A DNA stretch of 64,000 bases. Source: Cytophagales bacterium. Lineage in GTDB: Bacteria; Bacteroidota; Bacteroidia; Cytophagales; VRUD01. The position numbers were made by a program, and so were the translations under genes. Under the pieces are notes generated by a model. That model had not been told where the DNA came from, ran no database searches, and was given only the letters and a program-made list of their open reading frames with translations. How positions within the stretch are numbered: the stretch's first letter is position 1; every line of letters starts with the position of its first letter. Of this stretch, positions 110-57,571 are shown piece after piece. The stretch covers positions 9,717 to 73,716 of the forward strand of contig VRUD01000001.1 of the NCBI GenBank assembly GCA_019456305.1, given 5' to 3'.

Positions 110-175
110 ACTATTGATAATTATTTGTTTTTGCCTACTCTGTTTTAAGGATTTTCGGCTTGATCCTTTTGGTTG

Positions 176-7430: not shown

Positions 7431-7742
7431 GTTGGCAATCGGCAATCGGCAGTCGGCAGTCCACAATCGACAGTCCACAGTCGGCAGTTGGCAGTTGGCA
7501 GTCCACAGTCCACAATCGGCAGTTGGCAGTCCATCCCGAGTACTCGGGAGCAGTCGGCAATTGTTTTTTGCCGACTGGGGACTGCCGACTGCCGATTGAT
7601 TAAGTTAAGTTTCTAAATCCAGTTGCCATATTGTTTTAATGGTTTGATTGTTATTTTCTTTTTTGTCGACTGTGGACTGCCGACTGCCGACTGATTTTTT
7701 TGCCGACTGGAGACTGTAGATTGCCGACTGCCGACTGCCAAC
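7431..7742. repeat. ~310-bp foldback built from GGCAGTC/GGCAGTT/CCACAGT heptamers around a CCCGAGTACTCGGG core
   Basis: 7431-7533 holds heptamers in GGCAGTY orientation and the core is at 7534-7549. 7570-7606 and 7664-7742 hold the complementary words (CCGACTG, GACTGCC). It lies between convergent genes. Confidence 0.8.
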
Positions 7743-12376: not shown

Positions 12377-12394
12377 TAAAAAAAAATAAAAATA

Positions 12395-13057
12395 ATGGAA
12401 ACTCAACAAAAACCCATAACGATTTACACAGAAGCCAACCCCAATCCAAACTCGCTGAAGTTTGTCGCTGATTTTATGTTGGCGCCTGAAGGCAGCAGCT
12501 TTGATTATCCCGATGTCAGCAGCGCTGCTGACGCACCATTGGCATTGGCGTTATTTCAGTTCCCGTTCGTAAGGCGTGTGTTTTTTGCATCCAATTTTGT
12601 TACCATCACAAAGGATGAGAATACAAGCTGGGAAGATATTGCTCCTTCGCTTAAAGATTTTATTAAGAGTTATCTTGAAGCAGGAAAGCCAATACCGCGC
12701 AGCAGCCCCCCTCTAACTCCCGGCCCACCTGAATCGGAGAAACGGGGAATCGGAGAAACGGAGAGAAGGAAAACGAAGCAATTCACCGATTCGGTAAGGA
12801 ATAGTGGAGGAGGGGCTCCTGATTCTGAAATAGTAAAGAAAATAAAGAATGTTTTAGAACAGTATGTCCGTCCTGCGGTTGAAATGGATGGCGGCAATAT
12901 TAGTTTTGACTCATTTCAGGATGGTGTTGTTAAGGTAAACCTGCAGGGCGCCTGCAGCGGCTGCCCTTCTTCTGCAATAACATTAAAGCAAGGGATAGAA
13001 AACCTTTTTAAACAGATGGTTCCGGAGGTGAAGGAAGTGGTGGCTGAGGGGGTTTGA
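12395..13057 (+). CDS. Nfu/NifU-like Fe-S cluster scaffold protein
   Basis: Nfu N-terminal domain (NPNSLKF...) and a C-terminal NifU domain with the CSGCPSS pair. The inter-domain linker carries a repeat insertion. Confidence 0.8.
   Translation: METQQKPITIYTEANPNPNSLKFVADFMLAPEGSSFDYPDVSSAADAPLALALFQFPFVRRVFFASNFVTITKDENTSWEDIAPSLKDFIKSYLEAGKPIPRSSPPLTPGPPESEKRGIGETERRKTKQFTDSVRNSGGGAPDSEIVKKIKNVLEQYVRPAVEMDGGNISFDSFQDGVVKVNLQGACSGCPSSAITLKQGIENLFKQMVPEVKEVVAEGV
12728..12807. repeat. CGGAGAAA-word hairpin element in frame in Nfu; homologous to 55450-55605
   Basis: CCTGAATCGGAGAAACGGGGAATCGGAGAAACGGAGAGAAGGAAAACGAAGCAATTCACCGATTCGGTAAGGAATAGTGG. It encodes PESEKRGIGETERRKTKQFTDSVRNSGG. Confidence 0.85.
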
Positions 13058-13882: not shown

Positions 13883-13972
13883 GGGCATCTCTAAAAACTA
13901 CACCATACATTCCCCTCTATCAAGAGGGGCAAGGGGTGTGTTTTAAAAAATATGTAGTTTTTAGAGATGCCC
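13883..13972. mobile_element. 90-bp MITE-like element (copy 1), 20-bp perfect TIR GGGCATCTCTAAAAACTACA
   Basis: Identical at 90/90 positions to 49125-49214. It sits between the RAYT relic and the A2M start. Confidence 0.7.
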
Positions 13973-27772: not shown

Positions 27773-28090
27773 ATGGATAAAATTGAAATAATAAAAGAAT
27801 TAAAAGAATTACTCATCAAATATTTCCCTGGCGAAATTGCTCAGGTAATATTATTTGGTTCCCAGGTAAACGGAGATGCGCGGGAATATTCTGATTATGA
27901 TGTGCTTATTGTTGTAAATCGTAATTATGATTGGAGATATGAAAGGAAAATATTAAGGGTTGTCTATAAGAATGATCTTAAATACCATATCCTTACTGAT
28001 TTCACACTTATTTCAAATAAAGAATTAAATACCCTTAAAGGTAAACAACCGGTCGTGCTTGAAGCATTTGAAAACGGTATTGTAATATGA
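27773..28090 (+). CDS. Nucleotidyltransferase-domain protein (MNT-type antitoxin)
   Basis: The FGSQVNGDAREYSDYDVLIVV motif is the minimal NTase GS..(D/E).D signature. 105 aa. Confidence 0.8.
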   Translation: MDKIEIIKELKELLIKYFPGEIAQVILFGSQVNGDAREYSDYDVLIVVNRNYDWRYERKILRVVYKNDLKYHILTDFTLISNKELNTLKGKQPVVLEAFENGIVI

Positions 28091-28491
28091 CACTTAAACA
28101 TGAAGATAGAGAGAGTTTGATCAGATACAGAACTGAGCAGGCAGAAGATGCCATTGAAGATGCTCAAATTTTGATCGCAAAAGACAGGTTGAAAGCGGCA
28201 GTAAACAGAATATATTATGCAGTGTACTATATTGTTTTTGCTTTAGCTCTTAAGCACAAATTTAAAGGTACAAAACATTTGCCCCTGATAGCATGGTTTG
28301 ATAAAAAGTTTGTAGAAACAAATGTAGTTGATGTAAAGTATGGCGAAATGTACAGGGAAGCATTTAAAAAACGTTCTGAAGCTGATTATGGAACTTTTAC
28401 AAAATTCACCAAAAAGCAGGTTCTGGATTTGTTTGATCAAATGATGGAATTTGTTAAAAAAATTAAACATCTCCTTTATTCTGATGATTGA
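28087..28491 (+). CDS. HEPN-domain protein (toxin partner of MNT)
   Basis: Four-nt ATGA overlap with the NTase gene. The helical 134-aa protein with ..AVNRIYYAVYY.. and ..KRSEADYG.. fits the HEPN family. Confidence 0.75.
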   Translation: MTLKHEDRESLIRYRTEQAEDAIEDAQILIAKDRLKAAVNRIYYAVYYIVFALALKHKFKGTKHLPLIAWFDKKFVETNVVDVKYGEMYREAFKKRSEADYGTFTKFTKKQVLDLFDQMMEFVKKIKHLLYSDD

Positions 28492-28572: not shown

Positions 28573-29400
28573 ATGTTCTATTTATTGAGAAAATTAATTA
28601 GGTGTAGTATTATCATTTTGGTGTGGTGTCAGGTGTTTCCACCTGACACTCCTGTATTTGCACAGGCTGATAAAACAGCCCGGGAAAATACAGATATGAT
28701 CCCACTTGCTAATGATATGTATAATTTCAGGCATTTTAAAGATGCTCAGGATATCTACCTTAAAGTTCTGGAATTTGGTCCTGATAATGCTGCGGTCAAC
28801 TTGTTGGCAGGTTTATGTTATCTTAAAACAGTGAATAAAGTAAAAGCCATCCCGTATTTAAAAAAAGCACACCAATTGAACCCCGAAATATTGAAGCTAA
28901 TGGTTGATTATATTGAATTTAGCGATGAAGAATTAGCGCGGATCAATTCAACTGATTATATTATATATTTGATAGCAAAAGGATATCACCTGACTCATGA
29001 TTTTAACAAGGCGATAGAATATTATGAGCGTTACCATGATAGTGTTTTGCAAAGAGATTTTTTTAAATGGGGATACAGGTCAAGTGAAAAAAATGAGCTT
29101 ATTAATAAGATAAAGAGAAATATCTTTGAATGTAATAATGGAAAAGAATTTGTGAAGTACCCCGTAGGTGCGTTAATTGACAATATAGGAGTGCTGATCA
29201 ATACGCCTCATTCGGAATATGTACCCTTGATCTCTGCTGATGATTCTGTGCTGATCTTTACATCCAGAAGAATGGGAAGCACTGGCTGGAACAGGTCCGA
29301 AGATCATGACTTTTTTGAAGATATTTATATATCCCGTAAAAGAGGGAATTACTGGGTAAAACCGAAATATAGGCAGCGATATAAATTCTGCCTTACATGA
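28573..29400 (+). CDS. TPR + first PD40 (TolB-like) repeats; 5' part of a frameshifted OmpA-family gene
   Basis: Signal peptide ..VFA|QAD, then TPR-like helices, then ..FTSRRMGSTGW..EDIYIS..YWVKPK. The reading continues in the +1 frame from about 29365. Confidence 0.7.
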   Translation: MFYLLRKLIRCSIIILVWCQVFPPDTPVFAQADKTARENTDMIPLANDMYNFRHFKDAQDIYLKVLEFGPDNAAVNLLAGLCYLKTVNKVKAIPYLKKAHQLNPEILKLMVDYIEFSDEELARINSTDYIIYLIAKGYHLTHDFNKAIEYYERYHDSVLQRDFFKWGYRSSEKNELINKIKRNIFECNNGKEFVKYPVGALIDNIGVLINTPHSEYVPLISADDSVLIFTSRRMGSTGWNRSEDHDFFEDIYISRKRGNYWVKPKYRQRYKFCLT

Positions 29401-29521
29401 TGCCTGTATTGCTTTATCCCCTGATGCTGCGCAGTTATTTGTATATAAAACCAAAAGGAGCGGAGACATTTTTCTTTCTAATTTTAAAAACGGTCAATGG
29501 TCAAATCCTAAAAGTTTAGGG

Positions 29522-31837
29522 TTGCATATAAACAGCAATTGTACCGAACCATCCGTATCTGTCACTGCTGACGGTCAAACCTTATATTTTTCAAGTACAA
29601 AACCCGACATATACGGAGACCTTGATATTTTCGTCAGTCATAAAAAAAAGAATGGAAAATGGGGAAAATCAACCAGATTAGGACCTGAAATAAATACAGA
29701 ATATGATGAAGATGCGCCTTTTATACTTCCTGATGGGAAAACATTATATTTTAGCTCCAGAGGTCATAAGGGTATGGGCGATTATGATGTTTTCAGAACC
29801 ATATTGGATGAGAACGGAAAGTGGTCAGAGCCGGAAAATATAGGCTACCCGGTGAATACTGCAGAGAATGATATTTATTTTGTTTTTTCAAATGATGGCA
29901 AGCGAGGGTATTTTTCTTCTTACAGAAAAGAAGGATATGGTGAACAGGATATTTACGTTGTTAATCTGCCCGATTTATTTGCACTTTTTCAACGATTTGA
30001 TAATGATTCTTTAGCTTTAATAGCTATGATAAGATCTTATGGCGTTGAAAGTAATCGGCTGACCAACGAAATAGTTTTAAATGACATATTGGGCGCTGAA
30101 AAAGCAAAAAAAATGGCACAATACCTGGAAATAAAAAGGCTTACCCAAAGCGAAGCGAGGGAACTCGAAAAAGAATTTCTTCAAAAGGATTCAACAGAAG
30201 TTTTAGCTTTAGTAGTATTAGAGGAAGAGGGTAAAATAATAGTGATGGAAGAAGAAGAATTTATGCCTGCCTTTGATCCGCAGGATACAACTGCAACGAT
30301 CAAAGATACTTCTGTTGTAAAAAGTATTACTATTACTACTGACAGCATTGCTGAACAATTTAATGCTGGATTTATGTTCAGTTGTTATTATCGCCTTAGA
30401 ATAGTAGATAAATCAAAGATCACAGTTGAAGGCGGATACATCGTAGATGGAATTACCATCGGATACTATGACCAGGTGGGAGCATTTAACTTTGTTAAAC
30501 TTTCTCCCGATGAGCTCAGGAGACTTTCTGCTCCTGTAGGTTCAATGCTGACTGCCGACAGGGAATTGGTGGTTAATGATATTACTATTGGATACTACAG
30601 TGAAGATGGTGAATTTCACTATTCTAATCTTTCACCTGATGAGATCAGGAGGCTGAGTTCACGTAAGGGACCAGTGCTTACAGCAGACCGCAAATTAATG
30701 TTTGAGGGCGTTACTATTGCATACTACGATGTAGATGGTAAATTTCAGTTTGTCAATCTTTCACCTGATGAGATCAAGAGGCTTAGCTCACCTGAAGGCA
30801 CGATGCTGACGGCAGACAGGAAATACGTAGTGGATAATGTTGCTATCGGTCACTACGATAAAAAAGGAACATTTAAGTTTGCCAAACTTTCTAGTGATGA
30901 GATCAGGAAACTTACACCACCCCCTAAGAGCTCCTTGTTAACGGCAGATAGAAAATTGGTTGTTTATGGAATTACTCTTGGATATTACAATGAGCAGGGA
31001 GAATTTAATGTTTCAAATCTTTCTGCTGATGAACTGGACGAACTTAGTTCAATTGTCGCTGTTTCCCGGAATCAAGTCGATGAGATCACTGTTGGCTGCT
31101 ATGATGACCAGGGAGAATTTAAATATGTAGTACTTTCGCCTGATGAGATCAGATGGCTTACTTCAGTTGCAGGTGCAATGATCACAGCAGATGGAAAATA
31201 TGTAGTTGATGGCGTTACTATTGGATATAGCGCCAGTTCCCAGCCACCTGGCGGGGATAGTATTCCACCGCCTGATTCTCTCTATGGCCCATCTCTCTCT
31301 CCCGCACCCCCTGACCCTCCCGACCAAAGGTACGGGACAGGCCTGAAGGGGGAACGGCCTTCTAATGACTTAACAGTAATAGAGCTACACGAAACAAAAG
31401 ACTCTGCTGAAACTGAAATTGTTTCTGTCTCATCAGAATCTCCCGAAGGGGACCCTGATGATTTTAGCGGTAAAAGTATTGCTTGTGCCGAAGTAGGAAA
31501 AAGTATTAAATTTAAAAATATCCTTTTCAATTTTGACAACTATGCTTTAAGGTCTGCAGCATTTAAAGGATTAAATTATTTGAAAGATGTAATTGAGCCT
31601 TGCGATGAAGTAAAAATTACCATCATCGGGCATACAGATAATGTTGGTCCTGCTTCCTACAACCAGGCCTTATCAGAAAAAAGGGCAAAATCAGTATATG
31701 ATCAATTAATAAAAAAAGGTGTCCAGTCAAGTAAATTAACTTATAAGGGATATGGTGAAGAAAAACCGGTCGTGCCCAACGATACAAAAGAAAAACGGCA
31801 GCTTAACAGGAGGGTGGAGTTTGAAATTTTAAATTAA
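29522..31837 (+). CDS. PD40 repeats + six 44-aa novel repeats + OmpA C-terminal domain; 3' part of the same gene
   Basis: PD40 patterns (TADGQTLYFSS, LPDGKTLYFSS, SNDGKRGYFSS). C-terminal OmpA-like block FDNYALR...IIGHTDNVG...YNQALSEKRA..V...NRRVEF. The frame is open back to 29360. Confidence 0.8.
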   Translation: MHINSNCTEPSVSVTADGQTLYFSSTKPDIYGDLDIFVSHKKKNGKWGKSTRLGPEINTEYDEDAPFILPDGKTLYFSSRGHKGMGDYDVFRTILDENGKWSEPENIGYPVNTAENDIYFVFSNDGKRGYFSSYRKEGYGEQDIYVVNLPDLFALFQRFDNDSLALIAMIRSYGVESNRLTNEIVLNDILGAEKAKKMAQYLEIKRLTQSEARELEKEFLQKDSTEVLALVVLEEEGKIIVMEEEEFMPAFDPQDTTATIKDTSVVKSITITTDSIAEQFNAGFMFSCYYRLRIVDKSKITVEGGYIVDGITIGYYDQVGAFNFVKLSPDELRRLSAPVGSMLTADRELVVNDITIGYYSEDGEFHYSNLSPDEIRRLSSRKGPVLTADRKLMFEGVTIAYYDVDGKFQFVNLSPDEIKRLSSPEGTMLTADRKYVVDNVAIGHYDKKGTFKFAKLSSDEIRKLTPPPKSSLLTADRKLVVYGITLGYYNEQGEFNVSNLSADELDELSSIVAVSRNQVDEITVGCYDDQGEFKYVVLSPDEIRWLTSVAGAMITADGKYVVDGVTIGYSASSQPPGGDSIPPPDSLYGPSLSPAPPDPPDQRYGTGLKGERPSNDLTVIELHETKDSAETEIVSVSSESPEGDPDDFSGKSIACAEVGKSIKFKNILFNFDNYALRSAAFKGLNYLKDVIEPCDEVKITIIGHTDNVGPASYNQALSEKRAKSVYDQLIKKGVQSSKLTYKGYGEEKPVVPNDTKEKRQLNRRVEFEILN
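30440..31231 (+). repeat. Six tandem 132-bp (44-aa) coding repeats
   Basis: Units have the form V(D/N)xITIGYYdxxGeFxxxxLSPDEIRRLSSxxGxMLTADRKxV. Confidence 0.85.
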
Positions 31838-31865
31838 AAAGGTTTTCGTGGTGTCGGGTGTTTCC
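31701..31865. repeat. 165-bp direct repeat, copy 1 (last 46 codons of the OmpA gene plus left arm of its terminator hairpin)
   Basis: Matches 32642-32806 with 3 mismatches. Confidence 0.9.
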
Positions 31866-31872
31866 ACCCGAC

Positions 31873-31938
31873 AATCTCACAGGTACGATTGATGATAATT
31901 TTTTGTTTTTTAAGAAAATAGTGGTTGAATAAGTTTTT
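31873..31938 (+). pseudogene. Relic 3' end of a T9SS-CTD gene
   Basis: About 65 nt with 4 mismatches to 27355-27419. It encodes LTGTIDDNFLFFKKIVVE* versus LTGTIDDNFLFFKKFVVE*. Confidence 0.7.
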
Positions 31939-32641: not shown

Positions 32642-32806
32642 ATCAATTAATAAAAAAAGGTGTTCAGTCAGGTAAATTAACTTATAAGGGATATGGTGAA
32701 GAAAAACCGGTTGTGCCCAACGATACAAAAGAAAAACGGCAGCTTAACAGGAGGGTGGAGTTTGAAATTTTAAATTAAAAAGGTTTTCGTGGTGTCGGGT
32801 GTTTCC
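32642..32806. repeat. 165-bp direct repeat, copy 2
   Basis: See 31701-31865. Confidence 0.9.
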
Positions 32807-32852
32807 TTGTAGAGACGTTGCATGCAACGTCTCTACAAGGAAACACCCGACA
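32793..32852. repeat. 60-bp perfect palindrome (nested hairpin elements)
   Basis: TGTCGGGTGTTTCCTTGTAGAGACGTTGCA|TGCAACGTCTCTACAAGGAAACACCCGACA is an exact reverse complement. It is followed by TCAGGTGGAAACACCTGA at 32859-32876. Confidence 0.9.
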
Positions 32853-32893
32853 TCCCTATCAGGTGGAAACACCTGACAGCACTGTATTAAAAA

Positions 32894-38123: not shown

Positions 38124-39002
38124 ATGGAATTAAAAATCAATAATCTATCAAAAACTTATCCGAATGGTGTAGAGGCGTTAAAAAATGTCTCCTTAACGAT
38201 TCCTACTGGCATGTTTGGTTTACTTGGGCCGAATGGCGCAGGTAAATCAACCTTAATGCGCATCATTGCTACTTTACAGCAAGCAGATACGGGTTCTGTT
38301 TATCTTGATGATCTAAACGTATTGGACCAAAAGGATGAAGTTAGAAAATTATTGGGATATCTACCGCAGGAATTTGGCTTGTACCCAAAAGTAACTGCTG
38401 AAGGTTTGTTGAATCATTTTGCAGTATTAAAAGGTGTTTCTAATCCTAAAGAAAGAAAAGAAGTGATCCATGGTTTACTTCAATTAACCAATTTATATGA
38501 GGTGAGAAAGAAAAATCTGGGAACTTTTTCCGGAGGTATGAAACAACGGTTTGGTATTGCACAAGCACTTTTAGGCGACCCAAAGTTGATCATTGTAGAT
38601 GAACCTACGGCAGGGTTAGACCCTGCTGAGCGCATACGGTTTCATAACCTGCTGAGTGAAATCGGGGAAAATGTCATTGTTATACTTTCTACGCATATTG
38701 TGGATGATGTAAGTGATCTATGCAGCAGCATGGCAATCATTCATCTTGGAGAGGTGCTCTTAACCGGAAGCCCTTTGCAGCTTATGAATGATCTGAAAGG
38801 CAAAGTGTGGGAAAAAGTAATTGAGAAAGATCAGCTAAAAGCGTATAAGGATAAATTTAATGTTATCTCTGCCAGGTTGTTTGCCGGCAAGTCCCTGATC
38901 CATGTGTATAGTGAACAAAAACCGGATAAATCTTTTGAGACGGTACCACCTGAATTGGAAGATGTATATTTTTCTACTATTACAAAAGATATTCATGTTT
39001 AA
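38124..39002 (+). CDS. ABC transporter ATP-binding protein
   Basis: Walker A GPNGAGKST, signature FSGGMKQR, Walker B LIIVDEPTAGLD. Confidence 0.9.
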   Translation: MELKINNLSKTYPNGVEALKNVSLTIPTGMFGLLGPNGAGKSTLMRIIATLQQADTGSVYLDDLNVLDQKDEVRKLLGYLPQEFGLYPKVTAEGLLNHFAVLKGVSNPKERKEVIHGLLQLTNLYEVRKKNLGTFSGGMKQRFGIAQALLGDPKLIIVDEPTAGLDPAERIRFHNLLSEIGENVIVILSTHIVDDVSDLCSSMAIIHLGEVLLTGSPLQLMNDLKGKVWEKVIEKDQLKAYKDKFNVISARLFAGKSLIHVYSEQKPDKSFETVPPELEDVYFSTITKDIHV

Positions 39003-42000
39003 AGAAATTTTCTTTTTTGAACTTAAATACCGCTTCAAGCGCCCTGCCAATTACATATATTTTGGCATTTTCTTTTTGCTGACTTTCCTGGCAGTGAATG
39101 GAATGGCCGGGGGTTTCAAAGGAGTGGTCATCAGTGTTGGCAGCGGAGGCGGAGGGAAAGTACTGGCAAACTCACCATATCAAATTTATCTCCTGATAAC
39201 TCTTCTAAGTTATTTTGGCATTTTGGTGACTTCAGCCATTATGGGCAATCCTGTTTACAGGGATTTTGAACACCAAACGCATTCTTTATTCTATTCAAAA
39301 CCTATTTCTAAATTCGGATATTTAGCGGGCAGGTTTTTGGGTTCATTGGTAATTGCTTTTTTGGTTTTTTTAGGTCTTGGAATAGGGATTTTAACTGCTT
39401 CATGGATGCCGTGGTTAGACCAGGATTATATTGGTCCATTTTATGCAATGGCTTATGTGCAGCCCTATTTAGTTACAGTACTTCCCAACCTGATATTTAC
39501 AGGCGCTATCTTTTTTGCATTAGCCACGCTCACCAGGAATATTCTTTCTACTTATGTTGGAAGTGTTGTTTTCTTAGTCTTGTATTTTATGGGGCTCAGC
39601 CTTCTTTCTGACCTGGAAAATGAAACTATTGCAGCATTATTAGATCCATTTGGAGAAAGCGCTACCGGATTAGCAACAAAATATTGGACAGTAGCTGAAA
39701 AGAATACATTGATCATTCCATTTACCGGGCACTTATTTTTCAACAGAATTATCTGGTTAAGTGCCGGTGTATTGATCTTTGCTTTTGCATATAAAAAATT
39801 CAGCTTCTCTTATTTTATTTCAGAAAAGAGATCTAGGAAAAAATTGAAGCAGCAAACTTTAGAAACTGAAACAATAGATTGGGCAGGGAAATTTTTAATA
39901 CCACGAGCAACCAGGATATTTTCCTTTTCTACAAATTTAGTACAATATATTAAACTTACAGGGCAGGAATTAAAAGGAATTGTAAAGAACGTTTACTTTA
40001 TAGCCATACTATTTGCCGGTGTAGTGCTGATGTTTGTTAATGGAAGCCAGGTTGGAAAGTTTTATGGAACAACTACCTATCCCGTTACCTACCAGGTTAT
40101 TTCAATAATAAGCGGCTCTTTCGGCTTGTTTTTTCTTATTATTATTATCTTTTATGCCGGTGAATTGGTTTGGAGAGAACGTACAACCAAGATCAATCAG
40201 ATTTTTGATGCCCTACCCATCCCTAACTGGGTGCCGTTTAGTTCTAAATTAACTGCTTTGATCCTGCTTCAGGTCGTATTACTCTTAGTAGTAATGCTGT
40301 GTGGTTTAATCATCCAGGTATTTAAGGGGTATTATCATTTTGAGACCGGTCTATATGTAAAATCATTATTCGGATTACAATTTATAGAACTTGCCTTGCT
40401 TTGTGTATTAGCCATGCTGGTCCAGGTAATCGTAAATCATAAATATCTTGGACATTTTATCATGGTTGTATATTTTTTGGTGAGCATTTTTATGGCGCAA
40501 TTTGGTTGGGAACATAAACTATATGATTACGCTGATGATCCGGGATATACCTATTCTGATATGAATGGCTTTGGACATTTTATCTTGCCGATTGGGTGGT
40601 TTAAAATTTACTGGACGGCTTTTGCAGTATCATTAGCGATATTGTCTAACCTTTTCTGGGTACGGGGGTTGGAAACAAGCCTTAAATGGCGGACTCAACT
40701 TGCAAGAAGACAATTTGTTAAGCCCACAAAAATAGCTTTTATCTTAGCTTTATTGGTATTCTTTATTTCCGGTGGTTTTATTTTTTACAATACCAATATC
40801 TTAAATGAATATATGACCAGCAACGAAAGAGAAGAACTAAGTGTAGAATATGAAAAGCGATATAAAAAGTTTGAAAATTCACCACAACCGCGTATAACAG
40901 ATGTAAATGTCAACGTAGATATCTACCCACTTAGCAGAGATGTTGCATTTAAAGGACATTATATTTTAAAAAATAAAACCAACGAGGCTATTGATTCTAT
41001 CCATATTGATATAAATCGCAACATAACTATTAATGATATGTCTTTTGACAGGAATCATAAAATGGTTTTGGAAGATGAGAAGATAGGGTACTACATAGTT
41101 GAATTATCAAAACCATTATTGCCGGGTGAAAATGTAGTGCTTCAATTTGATTTAGCTTTCACTACGAAAGGGTTCAAAAATAGCGGCTCCAATACAAGTA
41201 TCGTTGAAAACGGGACATTTTTACATAGTAACAGCTATTTACCCGCTATTGGCTACAACGAAGGCGGAGAATTAAGTGATGATGATACCCGTAAAAAACA
41301 TGGCCTGAAACCTAAAGAACGTATGGCTTTAGTAAATGACAGCAATGCAAGGTTGAATAATTATATCTCACATGATGCTGATTGGATTACTTTTGAAGCT
41401 ACTATAAGTACCAGCCCGGATCAGATTGCTATAGCGCCTGGTTATTTACAACGTGAATGGACAGAGGGTAACAGAAGATACTTTCATTATAAAATGGACT
41501 GTAAAATTTTGAATTTTTATTCTTTCCTATCTGCAAGGTATGAAGTTATAAGAGATAGCTACGGCCCTACCAGCCCCCCTAACAGCCCCCCTAAATCCCC
41601 CCAAAGGGGGGCTGTTAGGGGGGCTATTGAAATTTATTACCATAAAGGACATGAATACAACCTGGATGCTATGGTAAAAGCTATTAAAAGATCTTTGGAT
41701 TATTATACAGAAAATTTCTCACCCTACCAGCATAAGCAAGTCAGGATACTGGAATTTCCCCGCTATGCTTCATTTGCACAATCATTTCCTAATACCATTC
41801 CTTATTCAGAAGCAATAGGTTTTATTGCACAGGTAGATGAGGATGATGAAGATGATATTGATTATCCCTTTTATGTTACAGCCCATGAAGTAGCGCACCA
41901 ATGGTGGGCTCACCAGGTGATAGGAGGGAATGTACAAGGCGCTACGGTGATGTCTGAAACCATGTCTCAATATTCAGCCTTGATGGTGATGGAAAAAGAG

Positions 42001-42732
42001 TTTGGAAAGGAAAAAATGAAGAAATTTCTTAAATATGAATTGGACAGATATTTAAGAGGTAGAAGTTTTGAACGAAAAAAGGAACTGCCGTTGATATTGG
42101 TAGAAGGACAGGGATATATTCATTATCAGAAAGGTGGGTTGGTAATGTACGCATTGCGTGATTACATAGGAGAGGATTCATTAAATGAAGCGTTAAGAAA
42201 ATATATCAAAGCAGTAGCTTATCAACAACCCCCATATACCAATTCACTGGAATTTTTAAGCTATATCAAATCAGCTACCCCCGATTCTCTGCAATATATA
42301 ATAAAGGATATGTTTGAAACGATTACCTTGTATGAAAACAAAACCAATGAAGCTGTACTTAAAAAACGCCCGGATGGTAAGTATGCTGTTAAGATTAAGG
42401 TAGCGTCTAAAAAGTTACGGGCTGACAGTTTGGGAAATGAAAAAGAGATCCCTGTTAACGACTGGATAGATATTGGGATATTTGGTAAATCCGAATTGAA
42501 AGCAGAGACGCCCAATTTGGACGTCTCTGCTTTCAATTCGGAAAAAAACTCTAATTCGGATAAATCCTCTATTGGTAAGCCTTTGTACCTGAAAAAACAT
42601 AAAATTAACCAGCCGGAAATGGAATTTGAAATTATTGTAGACGAGCTTCCCTGGAAAGCCGGCATAGATCCCTATAATAAATTAATTGACCGTGATTCGG
42701 GAGATAATGTAAAGAAGGTAGGGGCTGGTTGA
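38995..42732 (+). CDS. ABC-2-type permease fused to an M1-family zinc aminopeptidase domain
   Basis: The ATG at 38995 overlaps the ATPase stop (ATGTTTAA). About 12 TM segments run to roughly 40800. Then comes a peptidase domain with HEVAHQWW...E zinc site. Two hairpin insertions are carried in frame. Confidence 0.8.
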   Translation: MFKEIFFFELKYRFKRPANYIYFGIFFLLTFLAVNGMAGGFKGVVISVGSGGGGKVLANSPYQIYLLITLLSYFGILVTSAIMGNPVYRDFEHQTHSLFYSKPISKFGYLAGRFLGSLVIAFLVFLGLGIGILTASWMPWLDQDYIGPFYAMAYVQPYLVTVLPNLIFTGAIFFALATLTRNILSTYVGSVVFLVLYFMGLSLLSDLENETIAALLDPFGESATGLATKYWTVAEKNTLIIPFTGHLFFNRIIWLSAGVLIFAFAYKKFSFSYFISEKRSRKKLKQQTLETETIDWAGKFLIPRATRIFSFSTNLVQYIKLTGQELKGIVKNVYFIAILFAGVVLMFVNGSQVGKFYGTTTYPVTYQVISIISGSFGLFFLIIIIFYAGELVWRERTTKINQIFDALPIPNWVPFSSKLTALILLQVVLLLVVMLCGLIIQVFKGYYHFETGLYVKSLFGLQFIELALLCVLAMLVQVIVNHKYLGHFIMVVYFLVSIFMAQFGWEHKLYDYADDPGYTYSDMNGFGHFILPIGWFKIYWTAFAVSLAILSNLFWVRGLETSLKWRTQLARRQFVKPTKIAFILALLVFFISGGFIFYNTNILNEYMTSNEREELSVEYEKRYKKFENSPQPRITDVNVNVDIYPLSRDVAFKGHYILKNKTNEAIDSIHIDINRNITINDMSFDRNHKMVLEDEKIGYYIVELSKPLLPGENVVLQFDLAFTTKGFKNSGSNTSIVENGTFLHSNSYLPAIGYNEGGELSDDDTRKKHGLKPKERMALVNDSNARLNNYISHDADWITFEATISTSPDQIAIAPGYLQREWTEGNRRYFHYKMDCKILNFYSFLSARYEVIRDSYGPTSPPNSPPKSPQRGAVRGAIEIYYHKGHEYNLDAMVKAIKRSLDYYTENFSPYQHKQVRILEFPRYASFAQSFPNTIPYSEAIGFIAQVDEDDEDDIDYPFYVTAHEVAHQWWAHQVIGGNVQGATVMSETMSQYSALMVMEKEFGKEKMKKFLKYELDRYLRGRSFERKKELPLILVEGQGYIHYQKGGLVMYALRDYIGEDSLNEALRKYIKAVAYQQPPYTNSLEFLSYIKSATPDSLQYIIKDMFETITLYENKTNEAVLKKRPDGKYAVKIKVASKKLRADSLGNEKEIPVNDWIDIGIFGKSELKAETPNLDVSAFNSEKNSNSDKSSIGKPLYLKKHKINQPEMEFEIIVDELPWKAGIDPYNKLIDRDSGDNVKKVGAG
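41572..41625. repeat. 54-bp hairpin in frame in the M1 domain
   Basis: AGCCCCCCTAACAGCCCCCC (41572-41591) is the perfect reverse complement of GGGGGGCTGTTAGGGGGGCT (41606-41625). It encodes ..SPPNSPPKSPQRGAVRGA.. Confidence 0.9.
42491..42541. repeat. 51-bp hairpin (AGACG-CCCAATTTGG-CGTCT core family) in frame in the M1 domain
   Basis: CCGAATTGAAAGCAGAGACG (42491-42510) is the perfect reverse complement of 42522-42541, with loop CCCAATTTGGA. It encodes SELKAETPNLDVSAFNS. Confidence 0.9.
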
Positions 42733-45045: not shown

Positions 45046-45342
45046 ATGAACTACTCTAAAACCATAGACGGATTAAGTGACCAGGCATTCTGGGATGTGC
45101 ATTTTGATAAGCTGGACCCGAAGCGACATAATAACTTTATCGTGATGAAGGTTTTTGATTATGGTAATTGGGATGACGTATTATCGGTTTTGGGTTATTA
45201 TGGAAAAGATAGAGTGCGAAAGTGCTTGATTAATGCAGATTACTTGCAGGAGCATTCAATTGATTTGGCCAGATGGCTTTTAGATGTAAAACCTTCCGAT
45301 TTTAAATGCTTTACGAAAAAACAGTTACATCAGACATCCTAA
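45046..45342 (+). CDS. Small protein upstream of AbiEii (putative cognate antitoxin; family not recognised)
   Basis: ATG at 45046. 98 aa. Overlaps the following NTase-toxin gene by 37 nt. Confidence 0.5.
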   Translation: MNYSKTIDGLSDQAFWDVHFDKLDPKRHNNFIVMKVFDYGNWDDVLSVLGYYGKDRVRKCLINADYLQEHSIDLARWLLDVKPSDFKCFTKKQLHQTS

Positions 45343-46001
45343 GAGTGCTGGAAAAAATAAGTGGGATAGATGAATTAGAAAAATTCCAGCTTGTAGGGGG
45401 AACGGCTCTTGCCTTGCAACTAGGTCATCGTCAGTCGTTTGACCTTGATTTTTTTGCTGAAAGGGGCTTCAATAAAGAATACCTGGAATTACGGCTTAGA
45501 GCGCTGTTCCCTGAAAAAAAAGATTTAAGTCAGTCAATTAATGGCTTCTCCTGTAAGTTAGACGGAGTGAGATGTGATTTTTACGATTGGAAAACGGGTT
45601 ATATAAGGGAGCCGGTAGATTTTAAGGGAATAAAAATCGCGTCAACAGAAGATATTGCTGCTTTTAAATTGGATGCTATAACCAGGCGTACAACAATCAA
45701 AGATTTTTGGGATATTGCTGAGTTATTGGATAGGTATTCTATCAAGGAAATGATAATGTTTTACAAAGAAAAGTACCCATACCAGGATATAAGAATTGTT
45801 ATGGATTCGTTGCCCAAAGTTGAAAAAATAACAGAAAAGCCAGAGTATAAGATATTTAAGAATTGCACTTTAAAAGACGTAAATAAAAAGATAGAAACAG
45901 CAACGAAAGAATATATTGCAAATCAAATAAAGCAGAAAAAGGAAAAACAAGAGGAGCGGGTAAAAAAAGCAGAAAAACTTATAGAGCGAAAACAGTTGTG
46001 A
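45306..46001 (+). CDS. AbiEii/AbiGii-family nucleotidyltransferase toxin-like protein
   Basis: FQLVGGTALALQLGHRQSFDLDFF is the characteristic N-terminal NTase block of DUF1814/AbiEii. It has a lysine-rich tail. Confidence 0.7.
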   Translation: MLYEKTVTSDILRVLEKISGIDELEKFQLVGGTALALQLGHRQSFDLDFFAERGFNKEYLELRLRALFPEKKDLSQSINGFSCKLDGVRCDFYDWKTGYIREPVDFKGIKIASTEDIAAFKLDAITRRTTIKDFWDIAELLDRYSIKEMIMFYKEKYPYQDIRIVMDSLPKVEKITEKPEYKIFKNCTLKDVNKKIETATKEYIANQIKQKKEKQEERVKKAEKLIERKQL

Positions 46002-46631: not shown

Positions 46632-46660
46632 TGATTTTGGTTAGTTGGAAAGTGTTTTTT

Positions 46661-46787
46661 GCCACAAAAGCACAAAAGCACTAAATCCCACTAAAAATTA
46701 ACTAATTGATTTTCAGGGTTTTGTGGGATTTAGTGCTTTGGTGTTTTAGTGGCATTTTTATTTTTTGGACTTTTTAGAGTGGACTCA
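46661..46787. repeat. Second copy of the 2066-2218 hairpin (outer left arm missing)
   Basis: GCCACAAAAGCACAAAAGCACTAAATCCCAC..loop..TTTTGTGGGATTTAGTGCTTTGGTGTTTTAGTGGCATTTTT..GAGTGGACTCA. Confidence 0.8.
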
Positions 46788-47047
46788 AATAGTAAAATTA
46801 AATTCATGGCAAAAGTACTTCATCTCTCACAGAATATCAACCAAATTTATTTTATAAAAAAAACATCACTAAAAATTTGTATATTAAAAAACCATCCAAT
46901 ACCTTCGCCCGCAATTTTTGATCCACGCCTGTAGGCGCGGGATCAATATTTAATTTATTATTTAAACAAACACGGAACACGGAACGTACAGACGCCCAAA
47001 TTGGGCGTCTCAACATTCCTCAAATTCCTCAAAACAAATTAATTATC

Positions 47048-47652: not shown

Positions 47653-48104
47653 CAACTACATGAATGTTTTTTTAAAAGAATAAAAATCGTTAAATTTGAT
47701 TAGTACAATCAGAGTCTCCCGGAAATCCTAAATTCAAACATATTACTATCTTAAAAAGGGGACTCTGATGGGACTCCTTAAAAATATTAGAATATATTTT
47801 TCGCACACATCAGAGTCCCCTGTTCAGGTTTTTGGTATGACTGCCTGCAACGTGTAGGCTTTTCGAAAGGCAAGCAGGTACGAAGTTTGTATTGGCGGGA
47901 GACTCTGATGGGACTGAAATTTATTTTATAAAAAAACATCACTAAAAATTTGTATATTAAAAAACCATCCAATACCTTTGCCCGCAGTTTTTGATCCACG
48001 CCTGTAGGCGCGGGATAAATATTTAACTTATTATTTAAACAAACACGGAACGTACAGACGCCCAAATTGGGCGTCTCAACATTCCTCAAAACAAATTAAT
48101 TATC

Positions 48105-49066: not shown

Positions 49067-49124
49067 CAACTACATGAATGTTTTTTTAAAAGAATAAAAA
49101 TCGTTAAATTAGTAATTACCTTTT

Positions 49125-49214
49125 GGGCATCTCTAAAAACTACACCATACATTCCCCTCTATCAAGAGGGGCAAGGGGTGTGTTTTAAAAAATATGTAGT
49201 TTTTAGAGATGCCC
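49125..49214. mobile_element. 90-bp MITE-like element (copy 2) with a 12-bp target-site duplication
   Basis: Identical to 13883-13972. It is flanked by TAATTACCTTTT at 49113-49124 and 49215-49226. Confidence 0.8.
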
Positions 49215-49693
49215 TAATTACCTTTTTTAAAAAACACCCCCATCCCCAGCCTGAACACAAACGCATTTGATAGAACATAATAGTCTGCATTTGCCTCAAC
49301 AGCCCAGTGATCGTTAAGCATAAAATCATTTCCCAGACCGAATGAAACATCAAAACTACTTCCCTTTAGTGGGGCTTTTACCAAATAATAACCTTTACTT
49401 CTTAAAAAAAAGGTTTCAGAAAAATATAACCTTAGACCGAGCGCTGCAGCGCTTCTGCTTAAAGAATTAAAATACTCAAAACCCCCGGATAAGGCGAATT
49501 TATCAGCAGCAAAGTAGTTAAGGTCAAATCCAAAGCCAACGCTTTTACCAAAATTCTTGAATGGCTTTTTGTTGTTTGTATTGTATAGATTAACCCCACC
49601 GTTTAGCAGAAAATCTCCCTGGTAAGGTTGGGCATTTGCTGTTAAAACACAACTCATTGCCGCTACAAAGACAGAAAATTTGAATGCTTTCAT
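49214..49693 (-). CDS. Small outer-membrane beta-barrel protein
   Basis: Signal peptide MKAFKFSVFVAAMSCVLTANA|Q followed by alternating beta-strand pattern. 159 aa. Its stop codon TAG is formed at the MITE junction. Confidence 0.65.
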   Translation of the reverse strand: MKAFKFSVFVAAMSCVLTANAQPYQGDFLLNGGVNLYNTNNKKPFKNFGKSVGFGFDLNYFAADKFALSGGFEYFNSLSRSAAALGLRLYFSETFFLRSKGYYLVKAPLKGSSFDVSFGLGNDFMLNDHWAVEANADYYVLSNAFVFRLGMGVFFKKGN

Positions 49694-54817: not shown

Positions 54818-55975
54818 TTACAAGCCATACCTTCTTTTTAATTCATCACACGTCCATCTTATGGTGTCATTGATGTCTCTGAAATTCAAGCCTTCTTTTC
54901 CGTTAGACAGGCTTAATAAATTCCTTATCTTTCCATTATTGTAATGCAATGAATTTAAAGATGATTTTACAATATCTTTAGTGACCAAGGGCGGCTTTCC
55001 TGTGAAAAGAGATCTTATTATTTCAAATCTCCATGCAATACCACCCCAAAATGGTGATACCATGATATTGGGTTTTCTTTTATCAAAATTCAGCGCAATA
55101 ATATCAAATAATTCCTTATAAGATATTTTACCGGCAAAAATTAAGTACCTTTCATTATTTATCCCGGTATTGATCAACTGCAGCGTGATTTCAGCCAGAT
55201 CCCTCACATCAATATAATGCACCTCCCGGGTAGTATAAAAAGGATATTGTTTCCATACATATTGAAATATTTTTGAACTGCCTTTTTTCCAATTACCAGG
55301 ACCTAATACCACTGCCGGGTTTAATATAACGGCATTGAGTCCTTCTTCTATGCCTCGCCATACTTCCATTTCCGCAAGATATTTTGTTTGGGCGTATAAT
55401 GACACTTCTTCATAGACTGAAAATTGGATTTTTTCATTAATACCAGCCTTCCCCCCACTATTCCTTACCGAATCGGTGAATGGGTGAATCGGTGAATCGG
55501 TGAATTGCTTCGTTTTTCTTCTCTCCGTTTCTCCGATTCCCCGTTTCTCCGTTTCAGGAGGGCTGGTGTGGCTGCCGCTTATTCCCCGTTTCTCCGATTC
55601 AGGGAGGCTGGTAGGTTTGCCTATTGCCGCAACCGAACTTAAATGACAAAGTTTTTTTACACCTTTTTTGATACATACATTTACAATATTTGAGGTACCC
55701 TCTACATTTGTTTTGAATATTAATTTCTTGTCATGGTAAGATAATGAAACCATGGCAGCCGTATGGATAACCGTATCAACGCCTTCAATACTTTTTTCTA
55801 AACCCGTAATATCAAGTATATCTCCTTCTATCCACTCGATTTTATCAGCAATATCAGCAACGAGAGACAGATCGCTCGTTTTTCTTTTTAAAGCGCGCAG
55901 GCGATTGCCTTGCTGTAGTAATTTTCTGGCTATAAAACTCCCTACCAAACCAGTGCAGCCGGTGATGAAAAACAT
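54818..55975 (-). CDS. NAD-dependent epimerase/dehydratase (SDR) family protein
   Basis: GCTGLVG Rossmann motif at the N-terminus and a YAQTK catalytic Y..K. An insertion of about 50 aa lies between SSVAAIG and the YxxxK region. Confidence 0.8.
   Translation of the reverse strand: MFFITGCTGLVGSFIARKLLQQGNRLRALKRKTSDLSLVADIADKIEWIEGDILDITGLEKSIEGVDTVIHTAAMVSLSYHDKKLIFKTNVEGTSNIVNVCIKKGVKKLCHLSSVAAIGKPTSLPESEKRGISGSHTSPPETEKRGIGETERRKTKQFTDSPIHPFTDSVRNSGGKAGINEKIQFSVYEEVSLYAQTKYLAEMEVWRGIEEGLNAVILNPAVVLGPGNWKKGSSKIFQYVWKQYPFYTTREVHYIDVRDLAEITLQLINTGINNERYLIFAGKISYKELFDIIALNFDKRKPNIMVSPFWGGIAWRFEIIRSLFTGKPPLVTKDIVKSSLNSLHYNNGKIRNLLSLSNGKEGLNFRDINDTIRWTCDELKRRYGL
55450..55605. repeat. Expanded copy of the CGGAGAAA-word element, in frame in the epimerase
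   Basis: Its rc contains CCTGAATCGGAGAAACGGGGAAT...CGGAGAAACGGAGAGAAGAAAAACGAAGCAATTCACCGATTC..GGTAAGGAATAGTGG. It encodes ..PESEKRGISGSHTSPPETEKRGIGETERRKTKQFTDSPIHPFTDSVRNSGG.. Confidence 0.85.
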
Positions 55976-56089: not shown

Positions 56090-57571
56090 CTAAATATCTG
56101 ATGGTATAAACGACTGGGCATATTTGTTCCGAATCAATTCATCAATGAGACTTTCAACTTCCTCACTATCCCATTTTTGTTCTATATCCTCAATAGTAGT
56201 GATTTCTTTGAGCATTTTATCCTGTTCTTTGCCGATCCGCATAGCTTCAGCATAGGGGATATGGCTAAACATGACCATAGAATATAAGGGAGTAAATTTA
56301 TCAGGGTATGATTTATGGATCTTTCTTTCAAGATTTTTTCGTACTAAAAATTTAGGGTCTCCTACCAGGTCGCGCATTTCAATAAAATTCTGAAGTGCCA
56401 GTTCTGAAATGGCATCCGTATTGGGTTTACGGTTTTTTTCATATTCCTTAAAAATAGTTTCCCACCGTTCTCCCCCGATTGGGTCGTTCCTGCCATCTGG
56501 GCAGGCATACTTTCCCATCAGTTCATTTAGCACTGTTATGTCTTCAAAGCCAGCGATCATTCCCTGGCCGTAAAAGGGAACGATAGCGTGGGCAGCATCA
56601 CCGATCATAGCTACCTTATCTTTGTATGTCCATGGAAAGCAGCGAATATAGCAGAGTGATGAGGTAGGGTTGGCAAAATAAGTTTCAGTCAAAGCAGGCA
56701 TCAAGTCCGCGGCATCAGGGAAGGTTTGAAAAAACTTCAGCAGATCCGATCCTGTTTTTATGGAGTCAAAAGAGGTTGTATCAGTGCCTGTTCCGGAAGA
56801 ATCAGTAGTGTCAGGTGTTTGGTAGAGACGCCCAATTTGGTCGTCTCTACCAAACACCTGACGCCAAGGTAAAAATAAGGTACAGGTAAAGCTCCCATCT
56901 GCATTGGGCAGGGCGATCAGCATATAGTGTTTTCTAGGCCAGATATGTAAGGCATTTTTTTCCATAGCCCAACTGCCGTCAGCGGCAGGCGGAATGGTCA
57001 ATTCTTTATAACCATGTTCAATATAAGTTTGTGCATAATTAAAACGATCGGTCATTTGCATTACACTCCGTATTTGTGAAAAGGTGCCATCAGCGCCAAA
57101 TACCAGGTCACTTTTTACATCTGAGACAGCTCCTGTCTTTTGATTTTCTACTTTGATCACAGCTTCTTCCAAATCAACATCCACGCATTTTTCGTTGAAA
57201 TGAATGGTAGTGTTAGAATTTTTTTCAGCATGGTTCATCAGCGTTTTATTGAGCCCGCTGCGAGAAACAGCGTATATGGCGTCATCTTCTTTTCCGTAGG
57301 GTTGAAAAGAAAGTTCGCCATTGACTGCATGTATCATCCTGCCGCGCATGGGTATGGCTGCCTTGCGGACTTCTTCACCAATGCCCGCATCATCCAGCGC
57401 TTTCCAGCCCCTGGTAGAGCAGGCAAGGTTAATAGACCTGCCGGCAGGTATTTTTGCTTTTCGCATATCGGACCTGCTTTCATAAACATCTACCTGATAG
57501 CCCTTTCTTCCCAGGTATATGGAGAGCAGTGAGCCGATAAGCCCTGCGCCTGTTATGGTGATGTGCTTCAT
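56090..57571 (-). CDS. kmo: Kynurenine 3-monooxygenase (FAD-dependent)
   Basis: ITITGAGLIGSLLSIYLGRKGY FAD fold, GDAAHAIVPFYGQGM motif, and a C-terminal helical region. It carries a hairpin insertion in frame. Confidence 0.85.
   Translation of the reverse strand: MKHITITGAGLIGSLLSIYLGRKGYQVDVYESRSDMRKAKIPAGRSINLACSTRGWKALDDAGIGEEVRKAAIPMRGRMIHAVNGELSFQPYGKEDDAIYAVSRSGLNKTLMNHAEKNSNTTIHFNEKCVDVDLEEAVIKVENQKTGAVSDVKSDLVFGADGTFSQIRSVMQMTDRFNYAQTYIEHGYKELTIPPAADGSWAMEKNALHIWPRKHYMLIALPNADGSFTCTLFLPWRQVFGRDDQIGRLYQTPDTTDSSGTGTDTTSFDSIKTGSDLLKFFQTFPDAADLMPALTETYFANPTSSLCYIRCFPWTYKDKVAMIGDAAHAIVPFYGQGMIAGFEDITVLNELMGKYACPDGRNDPIGGERWETIFKEYEKNRKPNTDAISELALQNFIEMRDLVGDPKFLVRKNLERKIHKSYPDKFTPLYSMVMFSHIPYAEAMRIGKEQDKMLKEITTIEDIEQKWDSEEVESLIDELIRNKYAQSFIPSDI
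56810..56862. repeat. 53-bp nested hairpin in frame in kmo
   Basis: GTCAGGTGTTTGGTAGAGACG (56810-56830) is the perfect reverse complement of 56842-56862, with loop CCCAATTTGGT. It encodes ..RQVFGRDDQIGRLYQTPD.. Confidence 0.9.

Follow-up and report, generated by a model that had tools for sequence, protein, structure and literature searches.

Nested palindromic repeats within the kynurenine 3-monooxygenase gene of a Cytophagales bacterium

A gene for a conserved enzyme in the genome of an uncultured Cytophagales bacterium carries a long nested hairpin inside its reading frame, which raises the question of whether this hairpin belongs to the enzyme, to its messenger RNA or to a repeat that has settled in coding DNA. 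The gene encodes kynurenine 3-monooxygenase (KMO), a class A flavoprotein monooxygenase, and lies in a stretch of 64,000 nt (assembly GCA_019456305.1, contig VRUD01000001.1, positions 9,717 to 73,716), called the window from here on. Our best explanation, which we regard as probable, is that the hairpin consists of small selfish palindromes resembling repetitive extragenic palindromes (REPs) and Rickettsia palindromic elements (RPEs), nested one in the other in a permissive surface loop, and that it is tolerated by the enzyme and not a feature of it.

The KMO insertion and its alleles

Only two close relatives of this KMO were found in the protein database, and their DNA was taken from L001 (GCA_022567835.1) and L002 (ENA ERZ23486227). 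The features of the gene that matter here are:

56090-57571, minus strand: KMO gene, 493 aa, host of the insertions (open reading frame with full-length matches to solved KMOs)
56810-56862, no strand: 53-nt nested palindrome (hairpin), with one adjoining base a 54-nt in-frame insertion relative to L002
56810-56817, no strand: outer arm GTCAGGTG of the host hairpin (family A, by motif matches in the window)
56855-56862, no strand: outer arm CACCTGAC of hairpin A (likewise by motif matches in the window)
56822-56850, no strand: 29-nt core palindrome GTAGAGACG-CCCAATTTGGT-CGTCTCTAC, member of the cross-phylum GTAGAGACG..CGTCTCTAC family
56774-56809, minus strand: Thr/Asp/Ser/Gly-rich extension TTDSSGTGTDTT, with variants in the window, L001 and L002
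56474-56506, minus strand: second in-frame insertion of 33 nt (ACPDGRNDPIG) with a CCTGCC/GGCAGG inverted repeat, seen by alignment and by pLDDT below 50

The KMO open reading frame (ORF) is uninterrupted in the window and its product is identical to an NCBI protein named 'MAG: Cytophagales bacterium' FAD-dependent monooxygenase (MAG, metagenome-assembled genome); the nearest database proteins carry the name kynurenine 3-monooxygenase. In a structure-chain search, solved KMOs matched over residues 2-456 with E-values from 1e-97 to 6e-59, rat 6lkd giving 1e-97, human 5x68 2e-89 and the P. fluorescens group 9e-78; P. fluorescens 6fox and 5fn0 and the 4j2w/4j33 group of KMO chains matched as well. 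The FAD-binding fingerprints GxGxxG, DG and GDAAH..G, present as TGAGLIGS, GADG and GDAAHAIVPFYGQG, are intact and all lie in invariant columns of alignment A1.

The original prediction, made from the letters alone, described a nested hairpin with a Thr/Asp/Ser/Gly-rich extension at a place where KMO homologs have a short loop. The hairpin is there as described: the plus strand of 56810-56862 reads GTCAGGTGTTTGGTAGAGACGCCCAATTTGGTCGTCTCTACCAAACACCTGAC, a near-perfect palindrome with a perfect 21-bp stem, one mismatched pair (56831/56841) and then CCAA/TTGG around a central T. It encodes (R)QVFGRDDQIGRLYQTPD, followed by TTDSSGTGTDTT and then SFDSIKTG, so that the product at the loop reads ..FTCTLFLPWRQVFGRDDQIGRLYQTPDTTDSSGTGTDTTSFDSIKTG... 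The segment is indeed an insertion, as it is not conserved in unrelated KMOs. The 11 diverse KMOs of alignment A1 pass from LF(L/F)P(F/Y)EGxx straight into SF, and the same short form was found in 10 of 10 further metagenomic KMOs. These came from a scan with a conserved KMO 20-mer as anchor, aimed at further close alleles, which gave no new close allele and returned distant KMOs alone, all insert-free. Since homologs pass straight to SF, and the 6lkd and 5x68 chains drop out of alignment after query residue 237/238 and return at 267, the window protein has 26 extra residues. The short loop expected in homologs holds for Bacteroidota and animal KMOs but not for P. fluorescens KMO, which has a 12-residue loop of its own (HHQSPAAQPASP) at this position, showing that loop length varies naturally there.

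An AlphaFold model built with alignment A1 had a mean pLDDT of 82 and a pTM of 0.82, and its only internal segments with pLDDT below 50 were residues 240-263 and 358-366, which are the two inserts. The first of them is placed between the strand 228-235 and the helix 274-283; in the model, the insert is predicted to be a disordered surface loop, with the remaining fold intact. It starts 3-4 residues past the strand that in P. fluorescens KMO structures carries a substrate-pocket Phe.

Comparison of the three close alleles revealed three different states of this loop. Outside the insert the KMO genes of the window, L001 and L002 are roughly equidistant, with pairwise identities of 95.7-96.2%. 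The loop of L002 contains no hairpin and reads CCTTTC-TCATCAGAGTTTTCCGGAGCAGACTCTGATG-TAATATCTTTT, translated PFSSEFSGADSDVISF, whereas that of the window has the 53-nt hairpin plus ACTACTGATTCTTCCGGAACAGGCACTGATACAACC, and that of L001 has a 50-nt hairpin at identical junctions (L001 558-607) with a single mismatched pair. The L001 hairpin reads GTCAGGTG-GATG-TAGAGACG-AAGCATGCCT-CGTCTCTA-CATC-CACCTGAC. Relative to L002 the window gains 54 nt and L001 51 nt, each divisible by three. Common to both hairpins are the outer 8 bp and the blocks TAGAGACG/CGTCTCTA; the layer between outer arms and shared blocks, as well as the centre, differ wholly and symmetrically. A background divergence of about 4% cannot produce such symmetric change through compensated point mutations; the interior was either replaced or independently acquired. 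The KMO hairpin is a lineage-specific insertion.

The hairpin and the extension are both present but go back to two separate events, as a variant of the extension occurs in L002, where the hairpin is missing. In L002 the extension is still a 30-nt inverted repeat, CATCAGAGT-N12-ACTCTGATG, closely resembling window positions 31431-31460 (CATCAGAATCTCC-CGAA-GGGGACCCTGATG) in the linker preceding an OmpA domain (ORF 29360-31834), and half-sites of this motif type are clustered at 47.7-47.9 kb of the window. The window and L001 have a decayed left arm, so that their extension layer no longer forms a hairpin. From these sequences, the Thr/Asp/Ser/Gly-rich stretch looks like the degraded remnant of an older and different hairpin insertion, separate from the 53-nt hairpin. 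The 33-nt insertion at 56474-56506 is present in the window and L002 and missing from L001 and every other KMO compared; its sequence occurs once in the window. This pattern conflicts with that of the hairpin (window and L001), which implies independent gains or losses, or recombination.

Two further differences between the alleles were seen. L002 has a 61-nt frameshifting deletion at the equivalent of window 56522-56582, with loss of VPFYGQGMIAGFEDITVLNE, so its KMO may be a pseudogene or its contig misassembled. L001 has a RelE-type gene and a small adjacent ORF with no Pfam match between KMO and the neighbouring epimerase gene (L001 1312-1849); the KMO-epimerase spacer of the window is only 115 bp long and has no RelE-type gene.

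Host hairpin and core families in the window and across phyla

Both layers of the KMO hairpin recur elsewhere in the window, in the following places:

31853-31872, no strand: 'empty' hairpin A (GTCGGGTGTTTCCACCCGAC) after a duplicated gene tail, unfilled counterpart of 32793-32852
32793-32852, no strand: intergenic perfect palindrome of 60 nt, in which a GTAGAGACG-TTGCATGCAA-CGTCTCTAC core occupies the centre of hairpin A
42490-42542, plus strand: sister 53-nt palindrome with core GCAGAGACG-CCCAATTTGGA-CGTCTCTGC and other outer arms, in frame in an M1 aminopeptidase gene
46986-47014, no strand: core-family copy GTACAGACG-CCCAAATTGGG-CGTCTCAAC with short tandem repeats in its flanks, upstream of a gene start at a distance of about 34 nt
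48052-48080, no strand: the same GTACAGACG-CCCAAATTGGG-CGTCTCAAC copy, about 34 nt upstream of a paralogous gene

The consensus of family A is (T)GTCAGGTG-TTTC-CACCTGAC(A), with nine motif matches in the window against one expected; stand-alone copies are at 28626-28649, 31853-31872, 22810 and 32858-32877, the last inverted. The core is represented by three exact copies and two variants, and the string AGAGACG-N-CGTCTCT occurs three times (32811, 42504, 56824) against none expected. How the two families combine can be read from the pair at 31853 and 32793 (regions 31810-31875 and 32750-32880), where an identical 55-nt gene tail (..RVEFEILN*) stands upstream of both hairpins. The empty site is GTCGGGTG-TTTC-CACCCGAC and the filled one GTCGGGTG-TTTCC-TT-[GTAGAGACGTTGCATGCAACGTCTCTAC]-AA-GGAAA-CACCCGAC; thus the core sits exactly at the centre of its host hairpin and the former loop bases are mirrored. 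The KMO hairpin has the same layout, TTTG (56818-56821) being the mirrored former loop of hairpin A and CAAA (56851-56854) its counterpart.

A related core in the M1 peptidase (ORF 38902-42732) had also been foreseen, and it was found at 42490-42542, where it translates as KAETPNLDVSAF and coincides with an insertion of about 20 residues relative to seven M1 homologs. The opposite orientation of the two cores, which had been read from the peptides RDDQIGRL and ETPNLDVS, turned out to lie mainly in the reading phase. As a near-perfect palindrome, the core translates nearly alike from its two strands: the peptide is VETPNLVVS or VETTKLGVS in phase 0 and GRDAQFGRLY or GRDDQIGRLY in phase 2, and phase 1 is closed on both strands by the TAG within the GTAG head. 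The KMO core is read in the RD..RLY phase and the M1 core in the ET..VS phase. That both orientations are free of stops is therefore true but trivial; what really constrains cores inside genes is that either strand offers two open phases out of three.

To survey the core more widely, one genome per GTDB species was scanned with the pattern GTAGAGACG-N8-13-CGTCTCTAC, giving at least 130 copies in at least 120 loci; the copy statistics that follow refer to the 130 listed copies in 120 loci. Bacteroidota hosts include Bacteroidales, Chitinophagales, Flavobacterium, Hymenobacter and Parabacteroides, Cyanobacteria are represented above all by Nostocales, and the remaining hosts comprise Chloroflexota, Geobacter, Desulfuromonas, Ignavibacteriales, Rhodothermales, Acidobacteriota, Spirochaetales, Omnitrophota, Zixibacteria and Patescibacteria. 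The element consists of conserved 9-nt ends and a varying centre, 28-29 bp as a whole, the spacer measuring 10 nt in 91 copies and 11 nt in 32. Self-complementarity of this spacer is perfect in 89 copies and broken by one mismatch in 27; since only about 0.1% of random 10-mers are perfect, the listed copies form a true family with centres that vary and yet stay symmetric (for example CAAAATTTTG, CACGGCCGTG, TTGCATGCAA and CGATTAATCG). Single mismatches in the centres are mostly ordinary transitions and give no usable strand signal. A Bacteroidales MAG locus (L032) carries GTAGAGACGCCCAATTTGGGCGTCTCTAC, which is the KMO core with one base changed.

The base preceding the element is T in 51% of half-sites, and in 8 of the copies, about 15 times the chance rate, the palindrome runs at least 4 bp into the flanks, among them a stem resembling a terminator (L099) and, in Nostoc, an extension of 9 bp (L020). 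Partial half-copies stand in tandem beside L026, L032, L067, L091 and L113, and short tandem repeats accompany copies in other phyla (L048, L084, L107, L110, L115). Such repeats were also noticed directly beside core palindromes in the window (CACGGAA twice, ATTCCTCAA twice), including the flanks of 46986-47014.

Most copies (113 of 130) lie outside long ORFs. Those in frame inside genes include a GH2 enzyme (SRDAARHVST), a Mur ligase (VETHGRASLH) and the linkers of an FHA protein (VETRHVASLQ) and of a secreted protein (VETQNFASLP), and a BLAST search of plasmids placed core copies under annotated polyketide synthase and nonribosomal peptide synthetase genes of Nostocales and Planktothrix plasmids. 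Some genomes show bursts of identical copies, as at L068/L069 of Rhodothermales; these had been candidates for intragenic cores and proved intergenic once the real domains were mapped. Being dispersed, mostly intergenic and found in such bursts, the family behaves like a non-autonomous element of the REP type or of the MITE type (miniature inverted-repeat transposable elements).

Isolate and complete genomes have the family too, among them those of Calothrix PCC 7716, Hymenobacter perfusus, Anabaena cylindrica PCC 7122 and Persicobacter. The cultured Cytophagales species Persicobacter psychrovividus has a sister family with GTAGGGACG ends (GTAGGGACGTTGCATGCAACGTCCCTAC) in many copies, with copies on its plasmid pPP1 (L135) at 2715, 7806, 7945 and 20002 and 26 places found by BLAST on one 1.07-Mb replicon, which makes it a possible experimental host for work on these palindromes. 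These genomes bear on the idea that the KMO hairpin is an assembly or sequencing artefact: the window comes from a MAG, and chimeric reads can create palindromes, but a hairpin lies at the same junction in independent assemblies (the window and GCA_022567835.1), the hairpin lengths are in frame and the core family is not confined to MAGs. We regard an artefact as next to negligible.

Origin of the nested hairpin

The sequence of events that we propose would begin in the ancestor of the three relatives, in which a hairpin repeat of about 24-30 nt of the CATCAGAGT..ACTCTGATG type would have entered the loop that joins the active-site beta-strand (..FTCTLFLP) to the helix after it (SFDSIKTG..), the Thr/Asp/Ser/Gly-rich stretch being its putative remnant. 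A second small hairpin of family A (GTCAGGTG-loop-CACCTGAC) may then have entered alongside, and a 28-29-nt GTAGAGACG-N10/11-CGTCTCTAC palindrome would have come to lie at the exact loop of hairpin A, giving the nested 53 nt. In a needed gene, selection would act as a filter, and the survivors would be those with a length that is a multiple of three and a phase that avoids the TAG of the GTAG head. The symmetry is best explained by hairpin-templated copying at the DNA level (template switching or quasipalindrome correction), by recent insertion, or by both. That it reaches the exact centre, with the flanks mirrored as well, points to these sources and not to selection on RNA or protein; as to RNA, neither a terminator nor an Rfam family nor a strand-specific wobble signal was seen.

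A function for the hairpin, either as a selected mRNA structure (translational pause, RNase III site or attenuator) or as a loop that modulates KMO, seems very improbable to us. The mRNA stem is certainly very stable: the 126 nt around the hairpin have a folding energy of -53.6 kcal/mol (z = -7.5) and the 73 nt of 56800-56872, folded as DNA, one of -27.9 kcal/mol (z = -11.2), with none of 200 shuffles as good in either case, which shows that the palindrome is no product of chance; the insert also lies close behind the strand with the substrate-pocket Phe. Against a function, the hairpin is missing in one close relative and swapped for a different sequence in another, its peptide is predicted to be disordered, the same cores occur in unrelated genes and in intergenic DNA, and the centre mismatches, mostly transitions, have no strand pattern. 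A terminator and promoter scan predicted no terminator at the hairpin, which has no T-run. Rfam gave nothing relevant for the whole window at gathering thresholds, nor for the hairpin region at E-values up to 10, where the matches were sub-threshold chance matches to miRNA and sRNA models. An intrinsic terminator and an Rfam cis-regulatory hairpin were thus rejected as identities of the element.

Another explanation would have the palindrome made in place and with no transposition, a short inverted repeat being the site of template switching or fold-back synthesis by which one flank was copied in reverse complement. Template-switch mutagenesis at quasipalindromes, studied by Ripley and by the Lovett laboratory, turns imperfect inverted repeats into perfect ones during replication, and it would mirror changes from arm to arm as in the KMO hairpin. 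Symmetry to the exact centre and the mirrored former loops (TTTG/CAAA in KMO, TTTCCTT/AAGGAAA at 32793) agree with such a local origin, as do the partial tandem half-copies beside several members of the core family. The M1 copy agrees as well: its left outer arm TCCGAATTGAAAGC seems to be coding sequence of ancestral origin, with GKSELK lining up with GSKEVN of the homologs, its right arm is an inverted duplicate of the left, and a second partial inverted copy, AATTCGGAT, follows just downstream. However, template switching is a mutational process and not an element family; it explains mirroring but not the source of shared sequences, and the 29-nt core is one base off the copy in the unrelated locus L032, while its 9-nt ends are common to at least 130 copies in many phyla. 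Moreover, the outer arms belong to a family dispersed in the window and have no counterpart in the empty allele L002. We consider a purely local origin unlikely.

Several observations weigh against the explanation that we prefer, namely nested selfish palindromes in a permissive loop. The comparison of filled and empty KMO alleles revealed no target-site duplication or flanking direct repeat at the insert. Our case for mobility draws on three related alleles, and L002 could be a deletion derivative; its flank is locally unlike those of the window and L001. Pfam detected no transposase or insertion sequence among 20 window ORFs, only housekeeping and toxin-antitoxin genes, and an all-against-all comparison of 2130 ORFs from the 120 loci found no protein family recurring beside the listed core copies, the largest clusters being TPR proteins, ABC ATPases, alpha/beta hydrolases and GGDEF proteins. 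From the ancestral look of the M1 arm it follows that some outer layers may arise by local inverted duplication and not from pre-existing hairpin repeats. Finally, KMO activity and mRNA stability would have to tolerate a perfect 21-bp stem.

Among described systems, the GTAG/CGTC REPs are among the closest in form: they are stem-loops of 20-40 bp with a terminal GTAG, mostly extragenic, and their in-frame copies encode 20-30 residues (Di Nocera 2013, PMC3733652). New elements are known to insert into or beside existing REPs and REPINs (PMC3733652; Bertels and Rainey 2011, PMC3116915). The core family likewise is a short palindrome with a GTAG head and many dispersed copies, mostly extragenic and occasionally in frame, and it shows bursts of identical copies. 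It could then be a canonical GTAG-type REP or REPIN mobilised by a REP-associated tyrosine transposase (RAYT) encoded elsewhere in the genome, a proposal that we find doubtful. Unlike in REPs, which are imperfect stem-loops, GTAG is paired with CTAC, so that there is no unpaired tag, and the element is a perfect palindrome through to its centre, which varies freely. No Y1 transposase was found among the 20 scanned window ORFs or beside the 130 listed copies, the REP flanking the RAYT of Nostoc punctiforme (GTTGGGTTTCGTTCCTCAACCCAAC, PMC3116915 supplement) is unrelated, and for Bacteroidetes, where the core family does occur, the survey reports CGTC repeats only and no GTAG REPs (PMC3733652). 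The core was also considered as a MITE and set aside, as it has no target-site duplication, no insertion sequence was found in the 20 window ORFs and the element is made of its two 14-nt halves and nothing else.

RPEs, as the survey describes them, are dispersed elements lying in frame in probably functional genes, adding a short peptide, with multiple inserts per gene in some cases (PMC3733652). The KMO element resembles them in being a palindromic repeat that lies in frame in a conserved protein, at a place that the fold can accommodate. RPEs in that description are alphaproteobacterial, CGTC-tagged or longer (RPE-1) and imperfect as palindromes, with no sequence in common with the core, and nesting at the exact centre of another repeat and interior replacement between relatives fall outside it. 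The core was rejected as an RPE family member: the host belongs to Cytophagales and not to Rickettsiales, and the motif is not in the text or supplements of the survey (PMC3733652).

An in-frame palindromic repeat in a protein loop is a known type of event, and it is the element family, the nesting at hairpin centres and the rapid turnover that appear to be undescribed variants. For insertion of a palindrome into a palindrome, the nearest precedent is that of the small dispersed repeats (SDRs) of Nostocales, reportedly described for cyanobacteria only: they are reported to be 21-27 nt long and apparently mobile, and SDR5 is said to insert precisely into the highly iterated palindrome HIP1. SDRs occur in the cyanobacterial lineages that also hold many GTAGAGACG copies. 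Literature searches with the GTAGAGACG/CGTCTCTAC motif, longer variants and derived peptides (QNFASL and others) matched primers and shRNAs only, and neither the REP survey with its supplements (PMC3733652) nor the supplements of PMC3116915 contain the GTAGAGACG..CGTCTCTAC motif. As far as these searches reach, the GTAGAGACG..CGTCTCTAC palindromes are apparently an undescribed family.

As a tentative and more far-reaching proposal, the core palindromes may be a currently active family across Bacteroidota, Cyanobacteria, Chloroflexota and others, with ends recognised by a conserved protein that is not a RAYT. Such elements would home to the tips of hairpins or cruciforms and turn over fast in a 'Russian-doll' manner, even in housekeeping genes, with symmetry kept by hairpin-templated copying.

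Neighbouring insertions and meaning of the core family

Similar insertions were found in other genes of the window. The M1 peptidase gene has a second in-frame hairpin at 41572-41625, built of CCCCCCTAA-type tandem units and inverted copies, which also coincides with an insertion relative to the seven homologs; both M1 hairpins measure 53-54 nt. The M1 comparison was made at the protein level, as a search with the M1 C-terminus found no relative above 67% identity. Beside KMO, the epimerase/dehydratase gene (ORF 54818-55975) has an insert of about 50 residues (window about 55450-55600), of which a block of about 75 nt is wholly different in L001 (2580-2746), being replaced by other palindromic modules, with the frame kept in both; the L001 block contains the palindrome CCCGAGTACTCGGG. 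Part of this insert recurs in frame in an unrelated gene, in the linker of an Nfu/NifU protein (12717-12817, ORF 12380-13054). The module is rich in GAAACGGAG/GGGGAATCGGAG (peptide ..ESEKRGIGETERRKTKQFTDS..).

Other repeats and genes were observed in passing. The 14-nt palindrome CCCGAGTACTCGGG occurs eight times in the window (184, 3260, 7535, 8503, 11914, 44290, 47625, 56024) against none expected, an abundance reminiscent of HIP1; several copies fall within ORFs, and in the KMO-epimerase spacer a longer hairpin (CCCTGTTAT..TAACAGGG) encloses one of them. Present twice is a MITE-like element (13883-13972, 49122-49217), about 90 nt long and with terminal inverted repeats of 20-23 nt (GGGCATCTCTAAAAACTACA ... 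TGTAGTTTTTAGAGATGCCC), and so is another hairpin repeat of about 90 nt (GCCACAAAAGCACAAAA...TTTTGTGGGATTTAGTGCTTTGGTGTTTTAGTGGC; 2093-2184, 46660-46754). Tandem repeats of heptamer type (GGCAGTC/GGCAATC units), in partly inverted arrangement, occupy 7434-7600. The one Rfam match of the window above gathering score was to DUF805b RNA (132-168, minus strand, 41.6 bits), adjoining a CCCGAGTACTCGGG-containing palindrome at 180-201. Genes of toxin-antitoxin or defence type (HEPN, AbiEii) are scattered in the window (28072-28488, 45306-45998).

For KMO the finding calls for caution, as the 26 extra residues are better taken as repeat-derived filler in a variable loop than as a new functional domain. 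The same applies to annotation in general, since these elements give rise to loop 'extensions' and to recurring pseudo-peptides of the VETxxxxSL and RDxxxxRLY types, which can pass for protein features specific to a lineage. The ends of a 28-29-bp perfect palindrome conserved in distant phyla imply a common machinery of recognition or mobilisation. As an element that sits at the centres of other hairpins and is exchanged between genomes with 96% identity, the core family offers a tractable system for studying how very small palindromes spread, how their symmetry is kept up and how proteins absorb insertions.

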